DNA from: Dehalococcoidia bacterium
GTDB taxonomy: Bacteria; Chloroflexota; Dehalococcoidia; Lucifugimonadales; GCA-2712585
Assembly (NCBI GenBank): GCA_965208725.1
Contig: CBDBPI010000001.1
Span: forward strand, 732,687 to 796,686
Direction of reading: 5' to 3'
DNA length: 64,000 nucleotides
The notes below the pieces were generated by a model, which did not search any database, was not told the DNA's origin, and saw only the letters and a list, made by a program, of their open reading frames with translations. The translations under genes and the position numbers were made by a program. Shown piece after piece: positions 46,747 to 64,000 of the stretch (positions are counted from its first letter, which is position 1; the number at the start of each line of letters is the position of its first letter).

Positions 46747-46753
46747 GCCTAGG

Positions 46754-47044: not shown

Positions 47045-47054
47045 GTCTGTTCTC

Positions 47055-47381: not shown

Positions 47382-47386
47382 AATAC

Positions 47387-47959
47387 TTGCAGGCGAAACA
47401 AGTGCGCAATATAGTACATTCTATCGGACAAATGCAAGCGACGGCAATCCAAACCAAAACCCGCGCGCGAATCATCCTCGCGTGCCTCACTACCCTCTTC
47501 CTGCTCGCCTGCATGGGCCATCAGGAGGTGGCGCAGACAGAAACCGCTCCCCCATCAACCCCGATAATCGAAGCTGAAGCGACCATCGCCTCCTGCACCT
47601 TCTACCTGGAAGTCGCAGACACCTCTCAGGAACGGGCGCAGGGCCTCATGGGCAGGGAATCCCTCGGCCACGACCGAGGCATGATATTCATCTTCCAGAG
47701 CGAGCAGACCCTCAGCTTCTGGATGCGAAACACTCTCATCCCCCTGGACATACTCTTCATGGACAAAGACCTAACCGTCGTCAACGTACAGACCATGCGC
47801 CCTGAGCACGAAACTGACGGGGATTCCCTTCCCATCCACTCTTCCGCCGCACCCGCCCTCTACGCCATCGAAATCAACGAAGGAATGGCCGCCGAATGCG
47901 GCATCAAGCCGGGAGCGTCCGTCGTCCTGCGCGAAATCAGCCCCGAAGCTGCGCAGTAA
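47387..47959 (+). CDS. DUF192 domain lipoprotein
   Basis: LFLLAC lipobox; ERAQGLMGR..., GMIFIF, FWMRNTLIPLDILF. Start uncertain (TTG 47387 or ATG 47432). Confidence 0.75.
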   Translation: MQAKQVRNIVHSIGQMQATAIQTKTRARIILACLTTLFLLACMGHQEVAQTETAPPSTPIIEAEATIASCTFYLEVADTSQERAQGLMGRESLGHDRGMIFIFQSEQTLSFWMRNTLIPLDILFMDKDLTVVNVQTMRPEHETDGDSLPIHSSAAPALYAIEINEGMAAECGIKPGASVVLREISPEAAQ

Positions 47960-47962
47960 CCC

Positions 47963-48949: not shown

Positions 48950-48994
48950 CTTCCGATTATGGTTCTCCCACAGACCCCAAAGTCCCCGCCCCCG

Positions 48995-49033
48995 CCTTCC
49001 CCCTTGACGGGGGAAGGTTTGGATGGGGGTGAT
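48995..49033. repeat. REP-like hairpin, family E
   Basis: CCTTCCCCCttgacGGGGGAAGGtttggatgggggtga; 9-bp GC stem. Confidence 0.8.
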
Positions 49034-49157
49034 TCAGGTAGTATGGATGACGCATTTGGTAGTTATGCAATGTCTTCCCCGAAGGGTGGGGTTCCGATGG
49101 GTGTGATGCTTCTCTATCTCCATTCTGTTCAAATCGACCCGCAAAGCCCTCCGGCTG

Positions 49158-49937
49158 CTAGTGTCCCGTGTACTCGGGGTCCCGCTTCTCCACGAAGGCC
49201 CTCGCCGACTCCTCGAAGTCCGCCGTGTTGTGAAGCCTTAACGCCGCCTGGTAGTAGTCCGCCTCGGCGGCGGCACGCACCCACGGCCAGCGCGTCACCC
49301 TCACCCCGGCGCGGACCGCCAAGGGCGGCGCTTCAAGAATCTGCTCCGCCAGTTCCACGGCCCCCCGCAGATGCTCGCCCTTCGGTGTGACCCGATTTAT
49401 CAGCCCATGACCCATCAGCGTCTCGGCGGTCTGGGACTGCCCCGTCAGCAGCATCTCCGTGGTCATCTTGGAGGGCATGAAGTTCTGCACCTTGGCCCAC
49501 GCCGGCCCTCCGGGGAAGCCCCGCAGCGTCTCAGTGAGACCGAACTCAGCCCCCTTCTCGGCGACGATTAGGTCGCACTCGGCGGCGATGACCAGCCCGT
49601 AACCCAGACAGTATCCGTGGACGGCGGCGATGACAGGCTTCCAGTTGATGCATCGACCCAGAAACCCCTCCGGGTTCATCCCCATACCCCAGTCGGCGTC
49701 CCGTTGGCGTGAGTTGGGGTTGTGAAACCGCTCCTTTACGTCGGCGCCGGAGCAGAAGGCCCGACCCGCCCCATGCATCACCGCCACCCAGGCCTCGTCG
49801 TCAACGTCAAAGCTGTGCAGGGCCTCCGCCAGGTCTGTCTCCAGGTCCTTGTTGACGGCGTTGAGCACCCGCGGCCGATTTAGGGTCACGTAGCCGATGC
49901 GGCCTTCTCTTCGATAAGTGACGGCTTTCGAGTTCAT
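49158..49937 (-). CDS. enoyl-CoA hydratase/isomerase (crotonase) family protein
   Basis: ITLNRPRVLNAV, AFCSGADV, AAVHGYCLGYG. Confidence 0.88.
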   Translation of the reverse strand: MNSKAVTYRREGRIGYVTLNRPRVLNAVNKDLETDLAEALHSFDVDDEAWVAVMHGAGRAFCSGADVKERFHNPNSRQRDADWGMGMNPEGFLGRCINWKPVIAAVHGYCLGYGLVIAAECDLIVAEKGAEFGLTETLRGFPGGPAWAKVQNFMPSKMTTEMLLTGQSQTAETLMGHGLINRVTPKGEHLRGAVELAEQILEAPPLAVRAGVRVTRWPWVRAAAEADYYQAALRLHNTADFEESARAFVEKRDPEYTGH

Positions 49938-50010
49938 AACTGGACAGCCTCCAAAGCCTATTATGCCCCAGCCGCACCTCTCTTGCCAGTCGACCCCTCT
50001 TAATCCACCC

Positions 50011-50214
50011 GCTCATCCTGAGCTTATCGAAGGACGGCGTGGATGGGATGATCGCACTCCCTCCACTCCTCCCCCGCCTCCGCTCCACTTTCCCCACCCC
50101 CGCGAAAGCGGGGGCCCACTCGTCAACAGAAATCATCAAACCCCACCACGCTGCCTTTTCTTGTTTCTGCGAAGGCGGGAACTCCCCCACTCATCCTGAG
50201 CCTGCCGAAGGACG
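50011..50214. repeat. mosaic REP-like array 2 (families C, B, B', C)
   Basis: gctcatcctgagcttatcgaaggacgg (50011-50037); ccccacccccgcGAAAgcgggggcccactc (50092-50122); ttctgcGAAGgcgggaa (50164-50182); ctcatcctgagcctgccgaaggacg (50189-50214). Confidence 0.8.
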
Positions 50215-50279
50215 TAGGGACGGTTCGCGAACCGCCCGACCCAACTCCCCGCCAATTCTCAAAAGTGCCAAAATGCCCC

Positions 50280-50338
50280 TTGCAATCCAACAAACGCCCG
50301 TTCTATAGTATACGTTATAAGAAATTCTATTCGAATAG
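50280..50338 (+). promoter_or_regulatory. promoter plus downstream 12-bp perfect palindrome upstream of phage-like module 2
   Basis: TTGCAA (50280-50285), 18-nt spacer ending GTTC, TATAGT (50304-50309). Palindrome CTATTCGAATAG (50327-50338). Confidence 0.4.
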
Positions 50339-50359
50339 CAAGGAGGACATCCGAACAAC

Positions 50360-50704
50360 ATGCTCCCCAGTCGAACCAGCAAGAAATACATCGGCGCAAA
50401 CATCGATGGCCAGGAATACAGGGACGAAGGATGCGAAATCTCCCCGTCCTGTCTGCGATGTCCTCTGCCCCGCTGCAAGTACGACGATCCCCAATACGCC
50501 CAGGCCCAGCGTCGCCGTCAGAGGGACAACCTGATCGTCAGCGCTCACGTACGCGAAGGTCTCTCCGTGGCCGAGGTGGCCCGTCGGTTCGGACTCACCC
50601 ACAAGACCATACTTCGAATTTTAAGGAGGAACGGATATGGAAGAAATAAATCTGCCTCAGCTCGTCGCAAGAAGGGACGCCCGTCGGCTGCAAGGCTACG
50701 CTGA
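50360..50704 (+). CDS. Cys4 plus helix-turn-helix small protein (overlaps the portal start)
   Basis: CEISPSCLRCPLPRC, then HTH LSVAEVARRFGLTHKTILRILRR. The 3' end overlaps the portal gene by 68 nt. Confidence 0.5.
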   Translation: MLPSRTSKKYIGANIDGQEYRDEGCEISPSCLRCPLPRCKYDDPQYAQAQRRRQRDNLIVSAHVREGLSVAEVARRFGLTHKTILRILRRNGYGRNKSASARRKKGRPSAARLR

Positions 50705-51965
50705 AAACATCAGCTTCTTCGCCGGACGTCAGTGGCAGGGCCGCCAGCGTCGCGGCGAACGTCGGCTCACCTTCAACTACGTGCGCGCCCTGCTCGAAAA
50801 GGTCACGTCCTACATGGCCTCCGGCAGCATCCTCGCAATGGAGCCAATAGAGCCTTCAGAAGAAGGCATGGCCCGCGCTCGCAGCGCTGAAATCGCCATG
50901 CGCCGCGTCTACCAGGACAACCGGCTGGAAGAGCTGGACCTCGCCACCGAGCTCGACGCCGCCGTCCTCGGCGACGGCTGCTTCAAGGTCATCTGGGACC
51001 CGGAAGAACATCGCGTCCGCGTAACCGCCCCCGACGTTCAGGGCATCTTCGCCTGGTGGATCGGCGACGATCCATCCAGGGTCTGGCGCGTCGCCAGCCG
51101 ATACCGCATCTCCGCCGAAGACGCCGACCACCTTTACAACGTCAAGACCGGCGACCAGGACGGCATGGCTACCGTCGTCGAAGGCTGGACAAAGTCCCTG
51201 TTCCAGCTGTGGGTCGGCGATAACCTCGTCGACGAACGTCCCAACCCCTACGGCTTCATCCCCTTCGTCATCTTCCCCAACCTGCGGGATCCAAAACGCT
51301 TCTGGGGCGTCTCCGACATCCCCATCCTCATGGAACCAGCCCGCGAGCTCAACCGCGCCCTCTCCCAGCTTTCCACCATCCTGGAACTCTCCGGCAACCC
51401 CATCGCCGTGCTGGAGGGTGTGGAGGAAGCCCGCGACATCGCCGTGGAGCCGGGGGCAGTCTGGGAGCTTCCCGACCAGGCCCGCGCCTACCTGCTGGAT
51501 CTGCTCCAGGGCGGCGGCGCCAAGCTCCACGCCGACTACATCAAGCTGGTCTACGACGCCCTCCACGACCTGTCCGAAGCGCCTCGTATCAGCTTCGGAC
51601 ACAACCCACAGCGTCTCTCCGGCGTCGCCCTGGAGATGGAGATGCACCCCCTGCTGCAGCGCGTTGAGCGCAAGCGGCTTATCCGATCCTGGGTCTACCG
51701 TCGACGGGCGGAGATGGCCCTCCGGATGCTGGAACGCTTTGCCGGACAGGACTTCGGCGATCTCTGGATACGCGTTGACTGGGGGCCTCTGCTGCCCCAG
51801 GACCGCACCCGCCTTGTCCAGCAGGAACGCAGCCTCGTGGAGGCAGGCATCCACAGTCGCCGACGCGCCATGGAGCGCCTCGGCGTCACCGACCCCGAAT
51901 CCGAGCAGCAGACCATCCGACGCGAGTCGGAGAAGTCCGCCTTAGAAAACATCAACAACAATTAG
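50637..51965 (+). CDS. phage portal-like protein
   Basis: 442 aa. Its position before an acidic scaffold-like ORF and its size suggest a portal. Strong SD AAGGAGG 8 nt upstream. Assignment is by context and general resemblance only. Confidence 0.55.
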   Translation: MEEINLPQLVARRDARRLQGYAENISFFAGRQWQGRQRRGERRLTFNYVRALLEKVTSYMASGSILAMEPIEPSEEGMARARSAEIAMRRVYQDNRLEELDLATELDAAVLGDGCFKVIWDPEEHRVRVTAPDVQGIFAWWIGDDPSRVWRVASRYRISAEDADHLYNVKTGDQDGMATVVEGWTKSLFQLWVGDNLVDERPNPYGFIPFVIFPNLRDPKRFWGVSDIPILMEPARELNRALSQLSTILELSGNPIAVLEGVEEARDIAVEPGAVWELPDQARAYLLDLLQGGGAKLHADYIKLVYDALHDLSEAPRISFGHNPQRLSGVALEMEMHPLLQRVERKRLIRSWVYRRRAEMALRMLERFAGQDFGDLWIRVDWGPLLPQDRTRLVQQERSLVEAGIHSRRRAMERLGVTDPESEQQTIRRESEKSALENINNN

Positions 51966-51975
51966 AGGAGGCATC

Positions 51976-52542
51976 ATGGAAAATCAACCAAACGAGACCA
52001 ATTCCGAGGCCATAGAAATGTTAGACGACTCCACCGACACGCCTGAAATCAAGCACGAAAGCTCCGAAAATTCGGATTCCTCTGCACCACACAGCGAAAC
52101 GAGTCCCCCGGCAACAAGTCAGGAAGAAACGTCGGAAGAGAGCGAGAAGAATGAGGACGCAAACGTGGAGGAACCCTCCCCGCTCGAAGGCCGAATGGCA
52201 GAGCTGGAGCAACGGCTCGAACAGTCGGAGACCCAACGTCGGGAAGGTGAAGAAAAACTCTCCGCCACGCAGAAATCCCTGGCGGAAGCGGTTTCCCGCT
52301 ACCGGGCCATGCTGCTGAAGTCCATGCCGGAGGCGCCTGAGTCCATGGTCGTCGGAGAAACCGTGGACGAAGTGGACAGCTCTTTCGCCGACGCCAAGGC
52401 CCTGGTCCAACAGGTTCGACGAGAAATGGAGGAAAGACTGGCCAGGGAACGTCTCCCCGCCGGTTCCCCCACCCGCGGCCACGCCAACTTCGCAACCCTC
52501 ACCCCCATGGAAAAGATCCGCTCCGCCCTCTCCAACCCCTAA
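51976..52542 (+). CDS. phage scaffold-like acidic coiled-coil protein
   Basis: 188 aa. Very acidic N-terminus (SEESEKNEDANVEE) and a coiled-coil centre. Immediately follows the portal-like gene. Confidence 0.5.
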   Translation: MENQPNETNSEAIEMLDDSTDTPEIKHESSENSDSSAPHSETSPPATSQEETSEESEKNEDANVEEPSPLEGRMAELEQRLEQSETQRREGEEKLSATQKSLAEAVSRYRAMLLKSMPEAPESMVVGETVDEVDSSFADAKALVQQVRREMEERLARERLPAGSPTRGHANFATLTPMEKIRSALSNP

Positions 52543-52567
52543 AACGCCCACAACCACATAACCATCC

Positions 52568-52795
52568 GGTAGAGGCGGGTTTGAAACCCGCCTCTACCAT
52601 TCCCCACCCCCGCGAACGCGGGGGCCCACTCTTCGCTGACACCAAGCCCCATCCCTCCACGCTCAACCCCCAACCCAAGCCCAACTCTGCAAAACTTGCC
52701 GTCACGCAGTGACCCCCTCTCTCGCCCTGGGAGAGGGTCGGGGTGAGGGGGTACTCGCTCATCCTGAGCCTGCCGAAGGACGAAGGGTCGAGCAC
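52568..52795. repeat. mosaic REP-like array 3 (families A, B, G, D, C)
   Basis: GGTAGAGGCGGGTTTgAAACCCGCCTCTACC (15-bp stem, 52568-52598); ccccacccccgcgaacgcgggggcccactc (52602-52632); family G about 52681-52712; ccctctctcgccctgggagagggtcggggtgaggg (52714-52750); gctcatcctgagcctgccgaaggacg (52757-52782). Confidence 0.85.
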
Positions 52796-52838
52796 CCCCA
52801 ACTGCCATCCGTCTATGTCATCAAGAATTTAGTTGTCT

Positions 52839-53426
52839 TCAGAAAGTGATAAAGTGGCCCCCAAAAACTCTTGCTAGTACGTTGTCAGGGTCATGCTCAG
52901 CAATCCCCTGTAACTCTCTAGGTATGTGTAGAGCTAGTGAACTTTCTCTCAAGAGCTCCATCAAGCGTACTGACTCTTCGTAGGCAATTTCATCCCACTG
53001 CTCAGCATCAACTTTTGACTTCCTTAGTCGATCAAAGCCTTCATCTTTCAAGTCGAGTGTCAGAAGCTCAATATAGACTGAATACGTCCATATTGTCTCT
53101 AGGTATGCCTTTGATGTACCCAACGCTGCGGAATGCAGTTGTGCATGTTCACTTTGAGGTCTAACGTCTACTAATCGATTGTGTGCATCTTGAGATTCAA
53201 GTAAGTGTGCTCGGTAAGCTGCCACACGTTCGGTCGACCGTTCTTGCCACTCGGCTTCAGAATTTTGGAATATTATTCCTGCCTGTTCATGAATCTTACT
53301 GGTCGGCAAGATATACAGGAGAACATCTTGCAGACATCGTGTAAACTCACCGTCTGCAACTCGCGCCTTGAAAAGACGGGAGATGGAATAGAGAATCATT
53401 CGCAGCCAAGACATTAACACCCCCAA
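52839..53426 (-). CDS. hypothetical protein (low GC)
   Basis: 195-aa ORF; no motif recognised. Compositionally distinct from its neighbours. Confidence 0.5.
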   Translation of the reverse strand: MGVLMSWLRMILYSISRLFKARVADGEFTRCLQDVLLYILPTSKIHEQAGIIFQNSEAEWQERSTERVAAYRAHLLESQDAHNRLVDVRPQSEHAQLHSAALGTSKAYLETIWTYSVYIELLTLDLKDEGFDRLRKSKVDAEQWDEIAYEESVRLMELLRESSLALHIPRELQGIAEHDPDNVLARVFGGHFITF

Positions 53427-53496
53427 CGACTAGATGAACATAACTTTGCCCAGAATATACTACAACCTAGAACGCAATATGGGTTAGGCGCCAGCC

Positions 53497-54519
53497 ATGA
53501 ACCTCAAATTCGCTGCCACCTCCCGGCCCGGCAACCACGACGAAGTGGTCCAATGGGTCCAGGCCGCCGAGGCCCTCGGCTACCACCGCATCGGCATCGC
53601 CGACTCCCCCGCCCTCTACCGCGATATCTGGGTCTCCCTCACCCACGTGGCCCTCAACACCCGCCGCCTCCCCTTCGGCTCCTGGGTCACCAACCCCGTG
53701 ACCCGCCATCCCGTGGTGACCGCCAGCGCCGCCTCCGCCCTGGCTGAAATCGCCCCCAACCGCGTCTGCATCGGCATCGGCTCCGGCAACAGCGGCGTCT
53801 ACAACGCTGGACGTCGCGCCGCAACCCTCGCTTCCCTCCGCGAATACGTAACCACCCTTCGCGCCCTCCTGACCACCGGCGAGGCCGAATACCAGGGAGG
53901 AACGGCCCGCCTCCGCTGGTACGACGTGGACAGAAAAATCCCCATCTACATGGCCGCCCACGCCCGCGGCTCCCTCCGACTGGCGGGCGAGCTCGCCGAC
54001 GGCGTCATCATCGGCACGGGCACAACCCCGGAGGTGGTGGAAGCGTCTCTCAACGCCCTCGCCGAGGGCGCCCGCACCGCCGGTCGAGACCCCAACGACA
54101 TCGACGTCTGGTGGTCCGTCCCCTTCAATCTCCGCGACAGCGACGACGAAGGGTTAGACCCCCAGGGTGGCCCCGCGCGGGAGGCCAACTACCTCAACCG
54201 CTTCACCCTCAAGGGCAAGTTCGTCCCGAAGCAGTACTGGGAGGGCATCCGCGCCCTCGCCCAGGCATACGACCTCAGCACCCACGGACGTCCCACCCCC
54301 GAGCAGCTCCGTACCTACGACGCGCTGGCCGAAGAGTACGGCGTTCGTGACTACCTGCTGGAGCGATTCGGCGGCATCAGCGGCACAGCCGAAGAGTGCA
54401 TCGAAAAGCTCCGCCGCAACGCCGCCATCGGCGTCCGCCAGTACAGCATCAACGTCCCCGACTCCAACCGCCCCCAACGCCTTCGCCGCATGATGGAAGA
54501 AGTCATCAGCCACGCCTAA
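53497..54519 (+). CDS. LLM-class (luciferase-like) flavin/F420-dependent oxidoreductase
   Basis: GYHRIGIADSPALY..., TIM-barrel LLM pattern; 340 aa. Confidence 0.8.
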   Translation: MNLKFAATSRPGNHDEVVQWVQAAEALGYHRIGIADSPALYRDIWVSLTHVALNTRRLPFGSWVTNPVTRHPVVTASAASALAEIAPNRVCIGIGSGNSGVYNAGRRAATLASLREYVTTLRALLTTGEAEYQGGTARLRWYDVDRKIPIYMAAHARGSLRLAGELADGVIIGTGTTPEVVEASLNALAEGARTAGRDPNDIDVWWSVPFNLRDSDDEGLDPQGGPAREANYLNRFTLKGKFVPKQYWEGIRALAQAYDLSTHGRPTPEQLRTYDALAEEYGVRDYLLERFGGISGTAEECIEKLRRNAAIGVRQYSINVPDSNRPQRLRRMMEEVISHA

Positions 54520-54591
54520 CCCGCCAATAATGTAGTCCACTACTTCCCTTGATTTGAGAATAGATAATCTCCTCAGAGTGAGGGCCGTAAA

Positions 54592-54966
54592 ATGCCATTA
54601 GGAGAAAGCAACTTGTACGCCTCCGTCTACATATACCGGGTCAAAAGGAAAAACGTCGAGGAATTCTTGGCTATCGAGCGAAAGGCCGCCAAGGTCTATA
54701 TGGAGCACGGGTCTATCAACTATGACGTCTATAGGGGATTAAATCTGGCAGCCATGTATGGCTGCGCAGGGTTTGCGGAGTCATTGGATGTCGCCGACGA
54801 TGAGGAGGTACTGATTGGCTTGAACGGCTTCCACGACGAGGCCCATCACGACGAAACTATGCCCAAGGTCAACTCAGACCCAAGAATCCAGGACCTCTTC
54901 GCTCAGGTGATCAAGGTGATAAGCCTGGAACGCACCATCCACGGCAAGTTCGAGTTCGTCAGCTAG
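54592..54966 (+). CDS. DUF1428-like protein
   Basis: YIYRVKRKNVEEFLAIERKAAKVYMEHG...DPRI resembles the DUF1428 pattern. Confidence 0.5.
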   Translation: MPLGESNLYASVYIYRVKRKNVEEFLAIERKAAKVYMEHGSINYDVYRGLNLAAMYGCAGFAESLDVADDEEVLIGLNGFHDEAHHDETMPKVNSDPRIQDLFAQVIKVISLERTIHGKFEFVS

Positions 54967-54976
54967 AGTCTATTTC

Positions 54977-56134
54977 CTAACCCCGCCCATTCTTCCGCAC
55001 AAACCCAGCCAGCCGCTCCAACGCCTTGGCGATGTTATCCGCCGAGTTGGCGTACGACAGACGCACAAACCCCTCCCCGTACTCGCCGAACGCGCTCCCC
55101 GATAGCAGCGCCACTCCCGCCTCGTTCAGCACTCGCTCCTGAAAATCGCCGCTCTCGAATCCCGTCCCCTCGATACTGGGGAACACGTAGAAGGCCCCCT
55201 CCGGCACCGCACACTCGATGCCCGGGATGCTGTTCAGCCCCGCCACAATCAGGTCCCGACGCTTCCGAAACTCGTCCACCATGTTCAGCACCGGCTCCTG
55301 CGGCCCCTCCAGCGCACGGATGGCCGCCCGCTGCGTGAAGCTCGCCGCGCACGACACGCTGTTGGCCGCCAGCTTCACCACGTGCTCCGTCAGCCAGTGG
55401 GGGAACACCCCGTAGCCCAGCCGCCAGCCCGTCATCGCGTAGGACTTGGAGAATCCGTCCAGTATCACCGTCCGCTCCACCATCCCCGGCAGCGACGTGA
55501 TGCTGTGGTGCGCTCCCTTGTAGATGATGTCCTTGTAGATCTCGTCGGAGAGAATCACCACGTCTTCCCGAGGCCCAAGCAGCCCTGCCAGCCGCTCCAC
55601 GTCCTCCCTGCCCATGACGGACCCCGTCGGGTTCTGGGGCGAATTCAGAATCACCAGCTTGGTGCGGTCGGACAGCTTGCTCTCCAGGTCGTCCAGGTCC
55701 ATCCTGTTCCCCTCGTCGGGCAGCAACCGAACGGGAACCAGCTTCGCGCCGCAGAAGTTGATCATCGACTCGTAGATGGGGAAGCTGGGGTTCGGATAGA
55801 GGACCTCGTCTCCCGGTTGGCAAAGCGCCATGATGGTGAAGAACATGATGGGCTTGCCCCCCGGCGTTACCACCACCTGGCTCGGCTCTATCTCCAGTCC
55901 CCGCGTCGCGTTCACGTTGTTCGCGATGGCCTCCTGAAGCTCCGGCAGGCCGGCGGAAGGTCCGTAGTGGGTGTAGCCCTGCCGCAGCGCCTGGATGCCC
56001 GCGTCCACTATATGGGAGGGCGTGTCGAAGTCCGGCTCCCCTATCTCAAGGTGTACCACGTCGTGACCCTTGGCCTCCAATGCCTTGGCCTTGGCCAGTA
56101 CCTCAAAGGCCGATTCCGTCCCCAGGTTGTTCAT
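54977..56134 (-). CDS. pyridoxal phosphate-dependent aminotransferase (class I, aspartate aminotransferase-like)
   Basis: MNNLGTESAFEVLAKAKALEAKG..., NPQNPTG, SKSYAMTGWRLGY (PLP lysine). The longer track ORF runs into a REP array. Confidence 0.88.
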   Translation of the reverse strand: MNNLGTESAFEVLAKAKALEAKGHDVVHLEIGEPDFDTPSHIVDAGIQALRQGYTHYGPSAGLPELQEAIANNVNATRGLEIEPSQVVVTPGGKPIMFFTIMALCQPGDEVLYPNPSFPIYESMINFCGAKLVPVRLLPDEGNRMDLDDLESKLSDRTKLVILNSPQNPTGSVMGREDVERLAGLLGPREDVVILSDEIYKDIIYKGAHHSITSLPGMVERTVILDGFSKSYAMTGWRLGYGVFPHWLTEHVVKLAANSVSCAASFTQRAAIRALEGPQEPVLNMVDEFRKRRDLIVAGLNSIPGIECAVPEGAFYVFPSIEGTGFESGDFQERVLNEAGVALLSGSAFGEYGEGFVRLSYANSADNIAKALERLAGFVRKNGRG

Positions 56135-56242
56135 CCTGTCTGCTGCTTGCAAATGACCCCTCCCCTTTGGCGTCAACCCCCTTTTACCAGAGCGCAACGA
56201 AAAGCGCAACGAAAGCCCCCAACCCCCACCAACCTCGCCTTC

Positions 56243-56480
56243 CGTAGCGGCGGGTTTAAAACCCGCCCTCTCCCGTCTTCCCCCTCTCCCGTCCTGGGAG
56301 AGGGTTGGGGTGAGGGTCACTCCCCCTCCCATCCCCCACATGTCACACTAAACGCAGCGAAGAACCTTGCTGCCATTTACCAATCCCCACCCCTCGTTTT
56401 CCCGCGAAGGCGGGAATCCATATTCCCTCTTCCCTCTTGAGCCTTCCCCATCGACGGGGGAAGGTATGGATGGGGGTGAC
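56243..56480. repeat. mosaic REP-like array 4 (families A, D, F, B', E) in a divergent intergenic region
   Basis: cgtagcggcgggtttaaaacccgccc; cccctctcccgtcctgggagagggttggggtgagggt; catgtcacactaaacgcagcgaagaacc; ttcccgcGAAGgcgggaa; ccttccccatcgacgggggaaggtatggatgggggtga. Confidence 0.85.
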
Positions 56481-56573
56481 TCCCTCCCTCTCACCGAGAC
56501 AAGAACCCCTCACCCACCCAAAATGTTAATATGTACCCGAATCGTATCCACTAACCAGCCACCGGAGGTTTCC

Positions 56574-57695
56574 ATGAACAGCAGCGACGTTGTAATCGTA
56601 GGTGGAGGCGCCGTCGGCTGCGCTACCGCCTATTTCCTGTCCCAAGCGGGCGCAAATGTCACGGTCATCGAAAAGAACCGCATCGCCTTCGGCGCCTCCG
56701 GTTTCGCAATGGGGTTGTTGAGCCCCCTCTACGGCATGGGCATCCCCGGCCCGCTGGAAGGACTGTCCCTCAACGGCTTCCTCATGCACCGCGATCTCGC
56801 CGCCGAACTCCCCGACGCCACCGGCGTCGACTACCACGCCCACCCCCACGACTCCATCTACCTTTCCCTCTCCGACGAGGATGAAGAAGGGTTGAAGGGC
56901 ATTGCGTCCTACTCCGGCAACGTCGATGGGGTCTCCTACCAGTGGCTGGAGAGACAACAACTCCGGAGCATCGAGCCGCGATTGACCCCCGCCGCCGAGC
57001 GCGGAATGCTCGTCCAGGGCACCTGGGTGCTGGAGGCCGACAAGTACACGGAAGCCCTCGCCGAAGGCGCAAAACTTCACGGCGCCACGTTCCTTGACCG
57101 CGCCGTCACCGGCCTCGCCCGCCGCTCCACCGGCGCGGTTGTCCAGACCGATCAGGGCGACATAGAGGCCGACGCCGTTATCCTCGCCATGGGCCCCTGG
57201 ACCGGCGACGCCGAGAAGTGGCTAGGCGTACCCATACCCGTCGGCCCCCTAAAAGGCCAGATTGTCCGAATGAACATCGGCGGGCCGCCCGTTACCTGCT
57301 CCGTTCACTACGCCAGCAACTACGCCGGGCAAAAAGCCGACGGCCTCACCTGGATCGGCACCACCGAGGAGCGCGTTGGCTTCGACAACGAACCTACTAT
57401 GGAAGCACGTGAGCGCATCATCCGCGAAGTCGGAGAATTTTTCCCGCCCGCGCTGACGGGAAAGGTTGTCCATCAAACGGCCTGCCTGCGTCCCGTGGCC
57501 CCCGACGGCCTCCCCGTCATCGGCCCCGTCCCCGGCTGGGAGGGTGTCTACCTCTCCACCGGCGCCGGACGCAAGGGCATCATCCTCAGCCCGTCCATGG
57601 GTAAGTTGACCGCGGAAATGGCCTTGGGCAGCGGCGACGAAATGGCAATCGCCGCCTTCTCCCCCGTCCGCTTCAGCTCCATAGCCCCGTGCTGA
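56574..57695 (+). CDS. FAD-dependent oxidoreductase (DAO/glycine oxidase-like)
   Basis: DVVIVGGGAVGCATAYFL dinucleotide-binding motif. Start at MNSSDVV with a GGAGG SD. Confidence 0.85.
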   Translation: MNSSDVVIVGGGAVGCATAYFLSQAGANVTVIEKNRIAFGASGFAMGLLSPLYGMGIPGPLEGLSLNGFLMHRDLAAELPDATGVDYHAHPHDSIYLSLSDEDEEGLKGIASYSGNVDGVSYQWLERQQLRSIEPRLTPAAERGMLVQGTWVLEADKYTEALAEGAKLHGATFLDRAVTGLARRSTGAVVQTDQGDIEADAVILAMGPWTGDAEKWLGVPIPVGPLKGQIVRMNIGGPPVTCSVHYASNYAGQKADGLTWIGTTEERVGFDNEPTMEARERIIREVGEFFPPALTGKVVHQTACLRPVAPDGLPVIGPVPGWEGVYLSTGAGRKGIILSPSMGKLTAEMALGSGDEMAIAAFSPVRFSSIAPC

Positions 57696-58596
57696 AGTAA
57701 CGCTCGCCGATGTCGTTGAAAATCGTCACCACCTTCCCCTCTCCCACCCTCTCTGCGACGATAAACGCCCCCAGCACGTAGGCCCCCGAGCTCTGCCCGG
57801 CGAACAACCCCTGCGACGCCAGCTCCTGTGACACGGCCCGCGCCTCGTCGATGTCTATGGACAGCATCTCGTCCACCACGCTCTCGTCCAGCGTCTGCGG
57901 CGTAATGTGCCCCGGCCCCAGCGGCTTCAGCCCCTCCACGCCGGGCCATTCCGGCGGATTGACGCCGATGACCTGGATATCCGGGTTATGCTCTTTCAGC
58001 CGACGCCCAACCCCGCTGATGGTCCCGCCCGTCCCCACGCCCGCCACGAAGTGGGTGATGTCCGGCGCCTGACGCAGAATCTCCTCGCCGGTTGTGTCGT
58101 AGTGGGCCTGCGGATTGAACTCGTTGGAGTACTGGTCGCACCAGAAATACCGCTCCGGCTCCCCCTCGTACCGGCGCTTCACCTCCCGCAGCGTCTCGTC
58201 GTAGCCCAGCATCGGGTCGGTAAAGATAATCTCCGCGCCGTGGGCCAGCAGCCGCTTCTTCCGCTCCTGGCTCGCGTTCTCCGGCATCACCAGCGCCACC
58301 CGGTAGCCCAGCACCGCGCCAATCATGGCGTACGCGATGCCCGCATTCCCCGATGTGGCATCCAGAATGATCTTATCCTTCGTCAACTCCCCCGAAAGAA
58401 TCGCCTCTCCCAACATCCGCAACACGGGACGGTCCTTGATGGAGCCGCCGGGATTCAGATGCTCATACTTGGCGAAGACGGGCGCGCCGCCCCGGCTGTT
58501 CGGGATTCGCGCCAGCGGCGTATTCCCGATGGCCTTCAGCGGCGGATACCCGTCCAGAAACTCCAGAAACTCCTCAGATAGGGACACCCAGCACAA
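57673..58596 (-). CDS. cysteine synthase (CysK/CysM family, PLP-dependent)
   Basis: IGNTPL..., NPGGSIKDRP (PLP lysine), TSGNAGIA. Confidence 0.88.
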   Translation of the reverse strand: MCWVSLSEEFLEFLDGYPPLKAIGNTPLARIPNSRGGAPVFAKYEHLNPGGSIKDRPVLRMLGEAILSGELTKDKIILDATSGNAGIAYAMIGAVLGYRVALVMPENASQERKKRLLAHGAEIIFTDPMLGYDETLREVKRRYEGEPERYFWCDQYSNEFNPQAHYDTTGEEILRQAPDITHFVAGVGTGGTISGVGRRLKEHNPDIQVIGVNPPEWPGVEGLKPLGPGHITPQTLDESVVDEMLSIDIDEARAVSQELASQGLFAGQSSGAYVLGAFIVAERVGEGKVVTIFNDIGERYFSTGLWS

Positions 58597-58743
58597 CCTC
58601 GTCCAGTGATTTGGGGAAGAAAACCGCTTTCCTTCTAGGACTCATGCGCCCCCTTCCACCAATCGAGTATATCTATTGCAGGTTTGGGCGTAAAGCTTGA
58701 GGAGTTTAGGAGGAGTTAATTCCCAAAAGGACCATTTTGCCTA

Positions 58744-58773
58744 TTTACAGCTATAGTATCCATGTTCTAGTAT
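58744..58773 (+). promoter_or_regulatory. promoter upstream of the capsid gene (phage-like module 3)
   Basis: TTTACA (58744-58749), 18-nt spacer ending GTTC, TAGTAT (58768-58773). SD AAGGAGG; ATG at 58806. Confidence 0.4.
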
Positions 58774-58805
58774 CTCCTCATCAAACATTTCAAGGAGGTG
58801 CTTCA

Positions 58806-59696
58806 ATGGCATTAACTCTCACGGAATCCGCAAAACTCTCCCAGGATATGCTCCTCACCGGAGTCATCGAGACCATCGTCAAGGACAGCCCCGTCCTCCA
58901 GACCATCCCCTTCATCGAGGTGGTCGGCAACGGCCTCACCTACAACCAGGAAAAGGCCCTTCCCTCCGTCTCCTTCTACGAACCCGGCGACACCTGGACC
59001 GAGTCCACTCCCACCTTCACCCAGGTCACCGCCAACCTCAAGATCCTCGGCGGCGACGCCGACGTCGACAACTTCGTCAAGGCCACCCGCTCCAATCTGC
59101 AGGACCTGGAGGCCACCATCGTCGCCCTCAAGTCCAAGGCCACCCAGCAGCAGTTCGACACTACCTTCATCGACGGCGACACCGCTACCGACTCCAAGGC
59201 CTTCGACGGCATCGACAAGCTAACCGCTGACACCCAGACCGTCGCTATGGGGGCCAACGGCGGCGCCCTCACCCTCGACAAGCTGGACGAGACCATCGAC
59301 AAGGTCCGCGGCGGCAAGCCCGACATGCTCATCATGAGCCGTCGCTCCCGCCGCAAGCTCTCCGCCCTGGGCCGCGCCGTCGGCAGCGGCATCGTTGTCA
59401 CCGACAGAAACGGGTTAGGCATGATGACCGACTACTACGACGGCATCCCCGTCGGCGTCAGCGACTTTGTCAGCGACGAAAAGACCGTCGGCAACAAGAG
59501 CGACTGTTCAACCATCTACGCCCTCCAGTGGGGCGAAGGCGCCGTCGCCGGCCTCACTTCCCCTGGCGGCCTTCAGGTGGAACGTGTCGGCAGCCTCGAG
59601 ACCAAGGACGCCACCCGCGTCCGCGTCAAGTGGTACGTCGCCATCGCCGTCTTCAATGCCCTCAAGCTGTCCAGGCTAACCGGCGTCCGCCCCTAA
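58806..59696 (+). CDS. HK97-fold major capsid-like protein
   Basis: MALTLTESAKLSQDMLL...GGDADVDNF...LTLDKLDETIDKVRGGKPDMLIMS. The size (297 aa) and these motifs resemble phage major capsid families. Followed by an adaptor-like gene. Confidence 0.65.
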   Translation: MALTLTESAKLSQDMLLTGVIETIVKDSPVLQTIPFIEVVGNGLTYNQEKALPSVSFYEPGDTWTESTPTFTQVTANLKILGGDADVDNFVKATRSNLQDLEATIVALKSKATQQQFDTTFIDGDTATDSKAFDGIDKLTADTQTVAMGANGGALTLDKLDETIDKVRGGKPDMLIMSRRSRRKLSALGRAVGSGIVVTDRNGLGMMTDYYDGIPVGVSDFVSDEKTVGNKSDCSTIYALQWGEGAVAGLTSPGGLQVERVGSLETKDATRVRVKWYVAIAVFNALKLSRLTGVRP

Positions 59697-59912
59697 CCCC
59701 CTCCCCCTTCTTCCCCACTCTTCCCCACCCCCGCGAACGCGGGGGCCCACTCGCCAACGGGAATCGCGAAACCCCGCCACGCTCCCCCTCCTTCGTCATT
59801 CCTGCGAAAGCAGGAACCCACGGCGGGGCGGGGCCGAGGGGCAACCCTCTACCGTTCATCCTGAGCCTGTCGAAGGACCCCCCGTAGGGGCGGGTTTCAA
59901 ACCCGCCCTCCC
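59697..59912. repeat. mosaic REP-like array 5 (families H, B, B', C, A)
   Basis: aaccccctcccccttcttcccc; ccccacccccgcgaacgcgggggcccactc; attcctgcGAAAgcaggaa; ttcatcctgagcctgtcgaaggac; cgtaggggcgggtttcaaacccgccc. Confidence 0.85.
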
Positions 59913-59948
59913 ATCCCAAACCACCACCAAACATAAGGAGACCCCAAA

Positions 59949-60572
59949 ATGACCCTTACCGAAATGCGAAACCGCCTGCGGATAGACCTTCACGACGAAG
60001 ACTCCGCAAACTACCTCTGGACCGACGACCAACTCAACCGCCACCTCGGCCGCGCCGTGCGCGAACTCAGCGCCGTCCAGCCCCAGCCTGACGTGGCAAC
60101 CGTAAAGACCGGCTCCGACGGACGCTCCGTGACCCTGACCTCCCTCTCTGACCTCGTCCGCATCGAAGCCGTTGAATTCCCCCTCAACGAAATCCCGCCC
60201 TCTTACATAGACTACAGCCTCCGCGGTGCCGCCCTGACTCTGCTAACGTACCAACCGCCCAAGCCCAACGAGTCCGTGAGGGTCCACTACGGACGCCTTC
60301 ACACTCTGGACGACGACACCTCCACCATCCCACCCCACCTTGAAGAACTCGTCATCACCGGCGCCGCGGGTTACGCCGCCATGGACTGGTCCGTCCACGC
60401 CATCAACAGCATCAACCTTGGCGGCCCAAACACCTGGCGACACTTCCTGGTCTGGGGACAGGAGAAGCTGGCCCACTTCCGACAGGGCTTGGCCGCCCTG
60501 AGCCGCCGGGCCGGACTGCGAGTGCGCCGTCTCTACCGCCCTGTACACCAGCCCACTGCTGGAGGACTATAG
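59949..60572 (+). CDS. phage head-tail adaptor/head completion-like protein
   Basis: MTLTEMRNRLRIDLHDEDSANYLWTDDQLNRHL... is a typical adaptor N-terminus. Position after the capsid gene. Its stop overlaps the next gene's GTG. Confidence 0.45.
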   Translation: MTLTEMRNRLRIDLHDEDSANYLWTDDQLNRHLGRAVRELSAVQPQPDVATVKTGSDGRSVTLTSLSDLVRIEAVEFPLNEIPPSYIDYSLRGAALTLLTYQPPKPNESVRVHYGRLHTLDDDTSTIPPHLEELVITGAAGYAAMDWSVHAINSINLGGPNTWRHFLVWGQEKLAHFRQGLAALSRRAGLRVRRLYRPVHQPTAGGL

Positions 60573-62569
60573 TGCGCTCCCTTTCTCAAACGCTATTGGA
60601 TGCACAGCGCTACTCTCGCCGTCAGCCCCACCTGGGCGTGACCGTGGATCGGCGGCTTCCCCACGTGTTCCATCCCGTCTTCTCCCGGCTTCAGAATCTG
60701 GACGAGACCCCCTCCCGCCACGACCTCCACCTCACCTCAACCAGGACTCTCATCCGGGCCCGCGTCTCCCGCTCCAACTCCAGGCTCTACGTCCAGCGCG
60801 TCGCCGGAGCCGGATCAAACAGCAGCTTCACCCAGTGGACGTACCTGAACCGCGCCTATCCCGACGCCGGAGTCGCCCTATGCGGCAGCGGCTCCTACGT
60901 CCTCATGGTCTATGTCCACTACAGCAACCGACGCGAGATCCGATACCGCGAAAGTACCGACGACGGCGTCACCTGGAGCAGTGACAGTCGCCTCGTCTAT
61001 CCCTCCGTCGGCGGCGTATCCCACCTCACCGCGGCCATGAGCCCTGCCGGAAAAGTGGGACTCTTCTTCACCGGAACCAACAACAACCTCTACGCCATGA
61101 GGCGGCTCGACGGAAGCTGGACCGCCCCCGCATCGTGGCCTCAGTCCTCCTACGTCAGGCAGATTTCCGGCATCGCCTCCGCATACGGCGACGACTGGAA
61201 CGTGGTCGTCTGCGGCACAACCTCCACCGGCTCCTCCCGCGTGTGGACCATGATTTACGGCGACGGTACGGAGCAGGCCCGCGGCCAGTGGTCCAGCATC
61301 ACCAGCCTCACCCGCGCCGATGGCGGCTCCCGGGTTTCCTTCTCCCATCCCTATCTGGCAAATGCCGACACCAACCGTCTCTTCTTCAAAGAGTCCTACG
61401 ACGGCTCCGATTCCTACGGTCGCGCCTTCTGGACCTTCACCCCTCAGAGCGCCTCCTTCCTGACTGCCCGGTGGCGCGAGCCCATCCCCTTCGACGCCGA
61501 CCCCTACGCCGGTGTGGCCGTTGCTGGAAACTCCACCACCCTCTGGCTTGGAACCTCAACCCAGGTCTGGCGAGCCGCCGCCGGTCCTCAGCTGGACCTG
61601 ACCGACGACCTTCTGGAGGCGCATCTGACGGAAGGCGCTGCTGGTGGTCAAGCCACCCTGCTCCTTCGCAACGACAATGGCCGCTACAACGGTGCCGGCG
61701 TCGAAAGCGCATCGCCCCTGGTGCCGGGCGCGCGGGTCCGCTTCAACCCAGGCTATGTCACCCCTAAAGGTGTCGAGCGCTCCCCCGGCCCCGCCTACTG
61801 GATTGCAGGACTGGAGCGCCGTTCAGGCCACGGAAAGGCCCGCCTCGCCCTCTATCTGGAGGACGGCTGGTCCCTGCTGGAACGATGGCGCGCACGCTAT
61901 CAGCACAACTGGATCAAGGGCTTCACCTCCGTCGAGGACATCATGGAGTTCATCCTTGCCAGGGCCGGTTTGAGCCTGGAAGTCCTCAGCGCCAGCCAGG
62001 TTTTCAGGAGGCAGCGCCCTGCCTTCACCATCCACCCGAACGCCACCGCAGCCGACGCCGTCAAGCGGCTCATGTCCACCGTGCCGGACGTTCTCTACTT
62101 TCGGCAGGGCAGCCCCGCCGTGAAGCTGCTCGATCCCTCCGATGCCGCCGATTACTCCTACGGCGCGGACCATCCCATCATCAACGGCCGATATCTATAC
62201 CGGCCGTCCCGCTACAACCGCATCCAGACCTTCGGCCTAAACAGGCTCCAGGAGTCCCTCGACTGGGACTCCGTTGCGGCAATGTCGGACAGGCTCCTGC
62301 AGGTCTACGACATTAACCAGGAGACCTCCGACTCCGCAAAGAAGAGGAGCGACAGCCTCCTCGCCAAGGAACGACTCGCCACCCGGGGAGGACTTCTGGA
62401 AGCCCCTGTCAACTGTGGCTTGGAACTCTACGACGTAATCGGCATCACGGACCCCGCCGCCGGTCTCAACGGCGCCAGGCGGCGAGTCACCGGCATAGAC
62501 CTCAAGTACCGACGAGGCCCGAACGCCCCACCCCTCTACCGCCAGACCCTGACCCTCTCGGGAGTATGA
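60572..62569 (+). CDS. phage tail hub-like protein: BNR/sialidase-like N-terminal half fused to a gpD/gp27-like C-terminal half
   Basis: Asp-box STDDGVTWSS and propeller-like repeats in aa 1-330. The C-terminal half (ATLLLRNDNGRYN...VRFNPGY...YWIAGLERR...ARLALYLEDGWSLL) resembles late-control-D/hub proteins. Confidence 0.45.
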   Translation: MRSLSQTLLDAQRYSRRQPHLGVTVDRRLPHVFHPVFSRLQNLDETPSRHDLHLTSTRTLIRARVSRSNSRLYVQRVAGAGSNSSFTQWTYLNRAYPDAGVALCGSGSYVLMVYVHYSNRREIRYRESTDDGVTWSSDSRLVYPSVGGVSHLTAAMSPAGKVGLFFTGTNNNLYAMRRLDGSWTAPASWPQSSYVRQISGIASAYGDDWNVVVCGTTSTGSSRVWTMIYGDGTEQARGQWSSITSLTRADGGSRVSFSHPYLANADTNRLFFKESYDGSDSYGRAFWTFTPQSASFLTARWREPIPFDADPYAGVAVAGNSTTLWLGTSTQVWRAAAGPQLDLTDDLLEAHLTEGAAGGQATLLLRNDNGRYNGAGVESASPLVPGARVRFNPGYVTPKGVERSPGPAYWIAGLERRSGHGKARLALYLEDGWSLLERWRARYQHNWIKGFTSVEDIMEFILARAGLSLEVLSASQVFRRQRPAFTIHPNATAADAVKRLMSTVPDVLYFRQGSPAVKLLDPSDAADYSYGADHPIINGRYLYRPSRYNRIQTFGLNRLQESLDWDSVAAMSDRLLQVYDINQETSDSAKKRSDSLLAKERLATRGGLLEAPVNCGLELYDVIGITDPAAGLNGARRRVTGIDLKYRRGPNAPPLYRQTLTLSGV

Positions 62570-62584
62570 CATGACAATCAAAAA

Positions 62585-62758
62585 CCATCCCCCACCACCG
62601 AACCCCCTCCCCTTCTTCCCCCTCTCCCGTCCTGGGAGAGGGTTAGGCCTGTCCTGAGCTTGTCGAAGGGGTGAGGGTCCCTCTTACCTCTTCCCCCTTG
62701 ACGGAGGAAGATTGAGATGGGGGTGATTCCCAATCAACCAAAACCCAACACAGGTGAA
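62585..62758. repeat. mosaic REP-like array 6 (families H, D, C, E) bracketed by a 16-bp direct duplication
   Basis: Flanked by ACATGACAATCAAAAA at 62569-62584 and 62759-62774. Confidence 0.85.
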
Positions 62759-62760
62759 AC

Positions 62761-62973
62761 ATGACAATCAAAAAAGGCATCATCAAGGCTTTCAGCTCCT
62801 CAACCTACAAGGCCACCGTCCAGATGGAAGGCAGCCTCTCCGTCTGGGTAAGCTCCGTCCCCGTCGCCCGCAACATATCCTCCTCCCAGGTCCAAACCGG
62901 CAGACGCTGCGCCATCCTCTTCTTCAGCGAAGAGAACAAAAACGACGCCGTAGTCTTCGCCGTCTACACCTAA
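62761..62973 (+). CDS. small OB-fold-like protein (gpV/gp5 spike N-domain-like)
   Basis: KGIIKAFSSSTYKATVQMEGS...VPVARNI...GRRCAILFFSEENKNDAVVFAVY follows the G.V..v....a.V.......l..vpv......G..v.vlf......avv.avy pattern. Confidence 0.4.
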   Translation: MTIKKGIIKAFSSSTYKATVQMEGSLSVWVSSVPVARNISSSQVQTGRRCAILFFSEENKNDAVVFAVYT

Positions 62974-63625
62974 CCCCCTCTCCCGTCCCTCACTCCCCAC
63001 CCCCGCGAACGCGAGGGCCCACTCTTCACCCCCCAAACCCACATGTCATTCTGAACGCAGTGAAGCGAATTGAAGAATCTCGTTGCCGTAGCAACCCAAC
63101 TCCCCCAACCGCTCATCCTGAGCCTGTCGAAGGGTCGAGCGGTGAGCGCCCCCTGTAGGGGCAGGTTTCAAACCTGCCCGCCCCCTCTTTCCCCTCTCCC
63201 GTCCTGGAAGAGGGTTGGGGTGAGGGTATCGCCCCCAAAGTGACACTCCCTCTTGCCACCAAACACCAAACTTGCTGCAACGCAGTTGCCCCACCCTCGC
63301 GAAAGCGGGGGTCCACTCTTCCCCCACGCCAAAGACTCCCGGTAGGGGCACGTTTCAAACCTGCCCTTCTTCCCCTTCACCCACGTCCAGCCCGTAGGGG
63401 CGGCTCGCCCTCCTGTCTTACCTCTTCCCCCTTGACGGGGGAAGATTGAGATGGGGGTGATCCCTTCTCCCTTCCCACCCCCGCGAAGGCGGGGGCCCAC
63501 TCTTCACTCACGTCCAACTCTTCCCCATAACTGCCTATCTTCCCTTTTTGTCTCTCTTGCCACCAAACCCCTCACCAACCACCAACTTTGCGAAACTTGC
63601 CGCAACGCAGTTGCCCCCTAGCCAC
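62974..63625. repeat. mosaic REP-like array 7 (about 13 units of families D, B, F, C, A, G, E)
   Basis: Examples: ccccacccccgcgaacgcgagggcccactc (about 62995); gtcattctgaacgcagtgaagcgaattgaagaatctc (about 63045); gctcatcctgagcctgtcgaagggtcgagcgg (about 63110); gtaggggcaggtttcaaacctgccc (about 63156); cccctctcccgtcctggaagagggttggggtgagggt (about 63191); cttcccccttgacgggggaagattgagatgggggtga (about 63423). Confidence 0.85.
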
Positions 63626-63656
63626 GCCCACCCCATCAACGTTACAATGCTACCGC

Positions 63657-63742
63657 GCCGAAGTGGCGGAATGGTAGACGCGCCGGTCTCAAAAACCGGT
63701 GGGGGTTTCCCCGTGTCGGTTCGAATCCGACCTTCGGCACCA
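63657..63742 (+). tRNA. tRNA-Leu (anticodon CAA), class II with long variable arm, CCA encoded
   Basis: Acceptor GCCGAAG/CTTCGGC. Anticodon stem CCGGT/ACCGG with loop CTCAAAA. Variable arm GGGGGTTTCCCCG. T-arm GTCGG-TTCGAAT-CCGAC. Discriminator A plus CCA. TACAAT -10-like box at 63643-63648. Confidence 0.9.
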
Positions 63743-63865
63743 CTCACCGCCCCCCAATTTCCCCATACTTACACTACAATGATGTATATTATGGTATGTA
63801 GCCTATGGTAGAATGCGCCAAAGTGCTTCCTCTTCGAGCAGCATTGCATTCTAGGAGGTGTGACT

Positions 63866-64000
63866 ATGGAGAGCGGCAGCCCTCCGGTTGTCTACGAAGT
63901 TCGGTATCCTGAAACCCTCCATCCGGGACACGTTATCGCTAAACTGTTCCTCGGGTGGATCTATGTCGGCATCCCCCACGGAATTATCCTCTTTTTCTAC
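63866..64000 (+). CDS. DUF4389-like membrane protein, 5' fragment (runs off the window)
   Basis: SD AGGAGG at 63853-63858. MESGSPPVVYEVRYPETLHPGHVIAKLFLGWIYVGIPHGIILFFY matches the YPE...IPH..vl pattern. Confidence 0.55.
   Translation, partial: MESGSPPVVYEVRYPETLHPGHVIAKLFLGWIYVGIPHGIILFFY

Follow-up and report, generated by a model that had tools for sequence, protein, structure and literature searches.

A duplicated stop/start junction frames a changing repeat array between a hub-like tail gene and a small gene in an uncultured Dehalococcoidia lineage

We analysed a stretch of 64,000 nucleotides (hereafter the window; positions 732,687 to 796,686 of contig CBDBPI010000001.1, assembly GCA_965208725.1) from a Dehalococcoidia bacterium of an uncultured lineage, focusing on the junction between the gene for a 665-aa hub-like tail protein and the gene for a 70-aa protein that follows it on the same strand. 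The stop-to-start gap between these two genes is now 191 bases, and it holds an array of palindromic repeat units which is bracketed by two copies of the 16-mer ACATGACAATCAAAAA. The insert was mapped by BLAST against the window and by an inverted-repeat search, and the junction contains the following features.

60572..62569, + strand: 665-aa upstream gene, hub-like tail protein; an open reading frame (ORF) that follows the SU10-like adaptor gene
62569..62584, + strand: left copy of ACATGACAATCAAAAA, with the last stop base, one spacer base, the original ATG and 11 further bases of the small gene
62571..62657, + strand: 28-codon decoy ORF, MTIKNHPPPPNPLPFFPLSRPGRGLGLS, which begins at the ancestral ATG and enters the repeats
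62585..62600, + strand: C-rich 16 nt, CCATCCCCCACCACCG, with no second exact copy in the window
62601..62679, + strand: nested palindromic element (H + D + C), from inverted repeats and BLAST
62682..62731, + strand: E unit, a hairpin (62689-62697 / 62703-62711) plus the tail GATGGGGGTGATTCC
62732..62758, + strand: leader of the small gene, AATCAACCAAAACCCAACACAGGTGAA, locus-specific and no repeat unit, with the Shine-Dalgarno sequence AGGTGA at 62752-62757
62759..62774, + strand: right copy of ACATGACAATCAAAAA, with the working ATG (62761) and the opening codons of the small gene
62761..62973, + strand: 70-aa gene, predicted five-stranded OB-fold barrel

The 16-mer occurs exactly twice in the window (62569-62584 and 62759-62774), with no third site at up to two mismatches. 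By chance, 0.01 matches are expected, and none of 100 dinucleotide shuffles yielded two matches. The direct duplication to which an earlier note, made from the sequence alone, had drawn attention is therefore exact, unique in the window and beyond shuffle expectation. The 665-aa ORF ends with TGA at 62567-62569, and the first ATG (62571) lies 1 nt past this stop, with GGGAG at 62560-62564 as a Shine-Dalgarno-like site. As that note had read it, this ATG opens a decoy ORF into the repeats, which ends 103 nt short of the ATG at 62761 and is in a different frame. The second ATG was also correctly taken as the working start of the 70-aa ORF: AGGTGA, which is complementary to the 3' end of 16S rRNA, sits 3 nt before it, and MTIKKG is kept in 15/15 homologues. 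The hub and small genes are now physically apart, in line with the proposed uncoupling, and translation of the small gene would now start from its own AGGTGA site in place of coupling. Because the same bracket was found in independent assemblies, with 16 nt in locus L001, 14 nt in L004 (a complete chromosome of a metagenome-assembled genome) and L036, and 15 nt in L034, it is no assembly artefact. The decoy-type ORFs of these relatives have MTIKNHPPP in common and diverge beyond it.

Using genome, metagenome and exact-protein look-ups, 52 related loci were collected, and the junction alleles show the following states.

Empty (L008, L009, L040-L045): TGA-A-(A/G)TG
Empty (L035): GGTGTATGA-A-ATGACAATCAAAAAAGGC
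Filled, bracket-less (L003/L047, L005/L048-L052, L006, L007, L038, L039, L046): TAA or TAG, a C-rich stretch, usually the hairpin GTAGGGGCGTCCCTTGTGGGCGCCC, the leader and ATG
Filled with bracket (window, L001, L004, L034, L036): bracket of 14-16 nt
Filled, with the left copy reduced to ACATG (L002): a different array

In nine close relatives (L008, L009, L035, L040-L045), 1 nt separates the two genes. In distant relatives (~40-50% hub-protein identity), the gap is 1-11 nt in 14 of the 21 scorable loci, and the remaining seven junctions are independently filled with other repeats. Because empty alleles are present among both close and distant relatives, the junction was once empty, and the first copy still holds the ancestral start where it originally lay. 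The empty site that the earlier note had predicted exists: L035 matches the predicted letters apart from the spacer base, the alleles of L008, L009 and L040-L045 are empty too, and all of them have a stop, 1 nt and a start where the note had placed the ancestral coupled ATG. The filled alleles show that one bracket can hold different contents, with three interiors in the same bracket (window/L001; L004/L034; L036), and L002, which is ~95% identical to the window in the C-terminal part of the hub protein, yet has a fourth array. The independent fillings of this junction in distant relatives have no exact bracket; one of them, in L010 (3820-4000), consists of unrelated AT-richer repeats of the ttccaaat type. 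Searches of viral contigs by protein or DNA pattern yielded no further alleles, and the final two exact look-ups added nothing to the junction states listed above.

Within the insert, repeat units with other copies in the window cover 62601-62731, which is 131 of the 174 nt between the two copies of the 16-mer. The description of these 174 bp as repeat units only holds for the 131 nt, but not for 62585-62600, which has no exact copy elsewhere in the window, nor for 62732-62758, which is the leader. Similarly, the units that had been called H, D and C are indeed repeat sequence, but they are not separate and together form one nested palindromic element. Its outer arms pair (62602-62615 with 62665-62678), an inner 9-bp hairpin is formed by 62620-62628 and 62634-62642, and a 23-nt C-like filler occupies a slot at 62645-62667. 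Without this filler, the element is 100% identical to 56276-56318. The composite D(C) is also 100% identical in L002 at a different position, downstream of the small gene (1585-1629; 45 nt formally matched), and this identity extends to 69 nt when the sequences are read directly. The E unit is 98% identical to 63416-63461, with more copies at 48988 and 56435, and the C-rich CCATCCCCCACCACCG is similar by eye to the C-rich 5' extension before C units in L002, L004 and L036.

Two further observations concern the D and E units. First, the 5' arm of the D hairpin, CCCTCTCCCGTC, has five exact copies (56266-56293, 62620-62631, 62976-62987, 63192-63203), and some of them are orphan half-units without the 3' arm, for example the copy at 62976 straight past the stop of the small gene. 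Second, D and E units have a fixed internal slot which is empty or holds either a 23-25-nt C-like module or an unrelated 25-nt hairpin, varying among close strains (window 63190-63236; L001 3860-3930; L002 1570-1640; L035 4865-4909). In L035, the same filler is found at the equivalent point of an E-like unit. This filling of slots suggests that one repeat family nests site-specifically in another.

The leader at the right end of the insert has no second copy in the window, and in a total of 297 kb from 47 sources it is found solely directly upstream of this gene. It is homologous to the leaders of L001-L003, L006, L007, L037-L039 and L046 (p <= 0.002). Within the wider clade of the window, every filled allele has this leader, whether bracketed or not. 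Because the homology covers the window and every bracket-less filled allele tested, the leader is older than the array of the window and independent of it. The array itself matches no Rfam family. Because it also has neither a promoter-like site nor, on the gene strand, a terminator-like site, the two genes are probably still co-transcribed. A structured RNA element in the insert was considered as well and rejected, as the fold energy does not go beyond what composition gives (z = -0.88) and the only Rfam match is a tRNA.

The earlier note had explained the bracket by an en-bloc insertion. According to this explanation, the multi-unit H-D-C-E array is a non-autonomous element resembling a miniature inverted-repeat transposable element (MITE), which inserted once, as one block, into the A-run where the small gene begins, making a 16-bp target-site duplication. 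Several features are shared with MITEs, including a small non-coding insert, an exact direct duplication around it and an empty site in relatives, found as predicted. In addition, the insert begins at the same nucleotide (the end of CAAAAA) in both bracket-bearing clades, and the 69-nt D(C) composite found elsewhere in L002 indicates that composite pieces get copied. However, the interior varies within the same bracket, three arrays having been found in it, and its right end is a locus-specific leader which is also present in bracket-less alleles. No terminal inverted repeats were detected in 62560-62780 or in the equivalent stretches of L004 and L036, where only internal hairpins of the units are found. 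Neither end of the insert (62585-62600 and 62732-62758) recurs outside this junction, and exact recurrence of the left end is limited to this junction in the window and L001 (64-kb window and 46 loci, 297 kb). None of the three MITE hallmarks tested, namely terminal inverted repeats, dispersed copies with the same ends (297 kb) and a target-site duplication of fixed length, is seen in the insert. Other clean gains and losses of units between close strains have a flanking repeat of 0-5 nt, usually a C-run, and 14-15 nt is seen at this junction alone. A length of 14-16 nt exceeds the usual target duplications of bacterial insertion sequences, and mobilisation of repetitive extragenic palindromic (REP) sequences by RAYT or IS200-IS605-type enzymes is not known to make a target duplication. 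The en-bloc model for the present array is thus largely refuted, and we regard it as highly improbable. What can be kept of it is that pieces move en bloc, since the D(C) composite was copied with 100% identity to another position in L002.

Changes in the arrays between strains were compared using the array downstream of the small gene (62974-63656), and they proceed piecemeal. A unit after the small-gene stop is present or absent at a CCCCC microhomology, a D-unit slot in this array has no filler in the window and two different ones in L001 and L002, and a ~290-nt block between two F units is missing from L002. We therefore favour, with a probability of roughly 0.55, the explanation that a local duplication at the junction, and not the arrival of the present array, opened the coupled gene pair. 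The junction (hub TGA, 1 nt, small-gene ATG) would have been duplicated locally, through slippage or illegitimate recombination and not by a transposase. The left copy would have stayed behind the hub stop as a useless start, and the right copy, with the leader and its own ribosome-binding site, would serve the 70-aa gene. Short palindromic units resembling REP sequences or bacterial interspersed mosaic elements (BIMEs) would then have colonised the neutral spacer, and, because such units are gained, lost, nested and copied piecemeal, relatives would come to have different arrays inside the same frame. The direct repeats would also permit a clean deletion of the interior, by which the coupled junction can be restored, as in L035.

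A neighbour-joining tree was built from the small gene and the final 900 nt of the hub gene, with junction-proximal bases excluded. In this tree, L003 is sister to a group formed by the window, L001 and L002 (100% bootstrap), and L004, L034, L035 and L036 form a clade (100% bootstrap). The flanks of L035 have the states of the L004 clade (TCC GGT GTA TGA; AAA AAA), whereas other empty alleles have GCT/GCG and AAG AAG. As L035 branches within a clade of filled alleles, has 95-97% identity to these filled relatives over 2 kb and shares their flank states, its allele appears to have arisen secondarily, by a precise loss between the direct repeats. Precise excision of Tn10 and Tn5 occurs by replication slippage between short direct repeats, and the situation here is alike in that a hairpin-rich insert lies within 14-16-bp direct repeats and L035 has one repeat copy and no interior. 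It differs in that the insert is no transposon and the excision is deduced from phylogeny. The same tree places L006, which is filled, within the empty clade of L008, L009 and L040-L043. Because the differences between L006 and the empty alleles of this clade lie mainly in a short tract, hub position -13 to small-gene position +25 (79-87% identity, compared with ~93% in the background), recombination moves junction alleles between lineages. This far higher divergence of the junction tract also led us to reject a recent precise excision as the origin of the empty state in L008 and L009, and points to old alleles and local recombination instead.

The original duplication may have been longer than the bracket that is visible today. 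When anchored at the ATG, the match of the 34-nt leader to the last 34 nt of the hub gene beats dinucleotide shuffles in 6/8 filled lineages (best p <= 0.0005-0.01), and GCAGGTGTA in the leader fits the hub end of the empty alleles (GCTGGTGTATGA) better than that of the filled alleles themselves (TCGGGNGTA). In L010, 12 nt just before the start region of the small gene nearly duplicate the 3' end of this locus's own hub gene (TTGGGAGGAGCC / TTGGGAGGCGCC; p = 0.004). A duplication of roughly 25-50 nt which reached the 3' end of the hub gene is likely, if unproven. The stronger proposal of a firm ~50-nt duplication, with the leader as a copy of the hub 3' end, was weakened by a locus-wide scan and by the own-hub comparison, and we keep it as a suggestion. 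The double leader of L003/L047 was also considered as a second bracket and rejected, as its halves are not significantly similar (p = 0.14).

Several observations weigh against a local duplication followed by colonisation of the spacer. First, when the 12 ATG-proximal bases are removed, the signal of the leader match is weak to moderate, ranking within the top 0.1-1% of windows with L008 as the reference and lower with the others, and the ungapped comparison of each own hub with its own leader is mostly non-significant, with L006 and L046 (p ~0.04) and again L010 (p = 0.004) as exceptions. The likeness of the leader to the hub end near the ATG could come from the shared need for a ribosome-binding site. 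Second, no allele with the bracket but without repeats, that is, a pure duplication intermediate, is present among the alleles collected. Third, the two bracket-bearing clades are not sisters in the tree, and the right end in the L004 clade is only marginally similar to other leaders; a single origin of the bracket is therefore uncertain, and independent events at the same nucleotide are possible. The position of L006, filled within an empty clade, also weakens any tree-based ordering of events. Finally, the left copy has the same base at 15 of 15 positions in the window and L004 clades, compared with 64% identity at four-fold sites of the hub gene (P ~0.001 if the copy were neutral and old), and it is too well conserved for an old neutral relic. 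Candidate reasons for this conservation are a recent or independent origin, selection on a re-initiation ORF, and refreshment by recombination.

A recent origin could have come about by out-of-register recombination between a bracket-less filled allele and an empty allele at the A-run/TAA microhomology. The intact junction of the empty allele, TGA-N-ATGACAATCAAAAA, would have been put before the old array of a parent consisting of the stop TAA, a C-rich array, the leader and the start, possibly separately in the window and L004 clades. Such an exchange accounts for a perfect left copy, which would have been coding until recently, for an old leader common to bracket-less alleles and for a bracket in two non-sister clades. 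Empty and filled alleles do co-occur in one sample, ERZ21830300 (L034, L035, L036), and local recombination at the junction is seen in L006. However, an illegitimate exchange at 2-3 nt of microhomology is required, perhaps twice at the same nucleotide, we found no two parental alleles whose flanks match, and the L004 clade is without a known bracket-less filled allele. We consider this recombination unlikely, though not negligible.

Selection could likewise maintain the left copy if the ancestral start, which lies 1 nt past the hub stop with GGGAG before it, is used for coupled re-initiation. A short proline-rich peptide would then be translated into the array, for example keeping a structured spacer translated and protected or tuning the expression of the small gene. 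The identity of the left copy across clades, well above the neutral level, agrees with such a role, as do MTIKNHPPP in the window and L004 clades, where the three base differences are synonymous (AAC/AAT, CAT/CAC, CCA/CCG), and L002, which lost the next 11 nt and retained the ATG. However, the left copy is missing from the filled alleles of L003, L005-L007, L038, L039 and L046 with no visible cost, the peptides past nine codons are unrelated translations of different units with different ends, and the conservation argument draws on two independent lineages. This role of the left copy is very unlikely in our view. The wider proposition that the bracket is not a passive scar, whether it was made independently in two clades, at the same nucleotide, by a site-directed process which regularly duplicates the start region on entry of palindromic repeats into a coupled junction, or contains a selected re-initiation ORF (MTIKNHPPP...) into the array, seems quite improbable to us. 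If it were true, it would be a previously undescribed interplay of REP-like elements with translational coupling, and, together with the precise loss in L035, the hub-spike coupling of the tail would be reversibly switchable.

Returning to the local duplication, the units that would have entered the spacer behave as REP/BIME-type mosaic palindromes, part of them GTAG-tagged. At least six unit families of short (20-40 nt) extragenic palindromes, with 4-8 copies each, form mosaic arrays in the gene gaps from 48.9 to 63.7 kb. As in REP/BIME systems, they are imperfect palindromes of several families with 9-bp stems and 5-nt loops, the arrays begin immediately past stop codons, and the units are co-oriented with the genes. 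The GTAG tag is found in the window (family GTAGGGGCGGGTTTCAAACCCGCCC; B family, for example at 63155, GTAGGGGCAGG...) and in the junction hairpin GTAGGGGCGTCCCTTGTGGGCGCCC of L006, L038, L039 and L046, but the D, C and E units of the insert do not have it. No Y1 transposase was found among the 19 ORFs that were Pfam-scanned (40-63 kb of the window; the complete genomes were not scanned). Mosaic REP arrays and the nesting of one palindrome in another, as seen here, were reported for GTAG-REPs, including those of the Chloroflexi species T. roseum, in a paper whose main text lacks the word 'duplication' (Di Nocera et al. 2013, PMC3733652). Unlike these features, the long flanking duplication is no described property of REP insertion. 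Our literature search on repeats at coupled junctions returned general reviews only. A further system for comparison is the mycobacterial interspersed repetitive units (MIRUs) of Supply et al. 1997, in which a small ORF reportedly starts at the upstream stop and ends at the downstream start, so that coupling is preserved. The present junction is similar in having repeats between co-directional operon genes and a small ORF which begins at the upstream stop, but the decoy ORF ends 103 nt before the ATG, so that its stop does not overlap the downstream start.

With respect to the two genes, the 665-aa protein of the window has no Pfam or PHROG match. When it was examined together with 12 orthologues, two of the 13 hub proteins matched PHROG 1887 'tail protein' (best E 1.8e-10) and one matched PHROG 177 'baseplate hub' (E 2.8e-4). 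The 70-aa protein has 15 homologues with 63-93% identity, and its AlphaFold2 model has a mean predicted local distance difference test (pLDDT) score of 89.4. The top Foldseek matches of the model are P2 gpV, the Mu baseplate, T4 gp5, the R2 pyocin spike and viral 'Gp5/Vgr OB-fold' proteins; the E-values of these matches are weak (>= 1e-4), and generic OB folds match too. The predicted structure is most like the OB domain of the central spike proteins of phages and pyocins (gpV / gp5). A sequence-level search of PDB identified neither protein. A hub and a spike made in matched amounts would suit the tightly coupled ancestral junction.

Other phage-like structural genes and the features downstream of the junction are as follows.

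45358-46746, + strand: terminase, phage-like structural gene
50637-51965, + strand: portal, phage-like structural gene
58737-59696, + strand: SU10-like capsid, phage-like structural gene
59949-60572, + strand: SU10-like adaptor, phage-like structural gene
62974..63656, + strand: downstream mosaic array of the same repeat families (A, B/GTAG, C, D, E and F), reaching up to tRNA-Leu
63657-63742: tRNA-Leu(CAA), following the downstream array

The phage-like genes (45358-62973) lie on one strand and are split by housekeeping genes (DUF192, GTPase, enoyl-CoA hydratase, luciferase-like, DUF1428, aminotransferase, DAO and PALP). The order adaptor, hub, small gene, DUF4389 and ABC transporter recurs in close relatives with listed gene calls, and tRNA-Leu lies within this order where it was checked (window and L002). 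The pair of hub and small genes is present in more than 40 Dehalococcoidia/Chloroflexota loci, down to ~40% protein identity, and no relatives were found in IMG/VR. The phage-like set could be domesticated genes for particles like those of gene transfer agents rather than a prophage. In the downstream array, a second duplication brackets a composite array: a block of ~45-65 nt, TCYCTCTTGCCACCAAAC...AAACTTGCYGCAACGCAGTTGCCCC, at 63247-63292 and 63551-63617 flanks ~260 nt of units just before tRNA-Leu, and L002 has one copy and no interior. GC skew is -0.13 to -0.24 from ~46 kb to the end of the window (46000-64000) and about zero elsewhere, and in this region the + strand of the genes and repeat arrays is C-rich. 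A different type of repeat, with a 12-nt period and GGNGTNGGNTCN-like on the + strand, is found at 17453-17795, 20671-20953, 41036-41914 and 43513-44020, inside four large minus-strand ORFs (15245-17980, 18082-21075, 40051-42183 and 42313-44115), of which that at 40051-42183 carries a trypsin-like peptidase domain. These runs are probably low-complexity linkers of secreted or surface proteins.

In conclusion, this junction reveals no new kind of mobile element, and what it records is ordinary, repeat-driven genome wear of a known kind. It is a natural example of REP-like repeats invading a stop/start-coupled gene pair with both genes left intact, in which a small duplication of the junction would keep both reading frames whole and later permit clean removal of the insert. 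For annotators, the first ATG past the hub stop should be taken as a decoy. The series of empty, filled, remodelled and apparently excised alleles provides a picture of array turnover in a phylum where such elements have barely been described.

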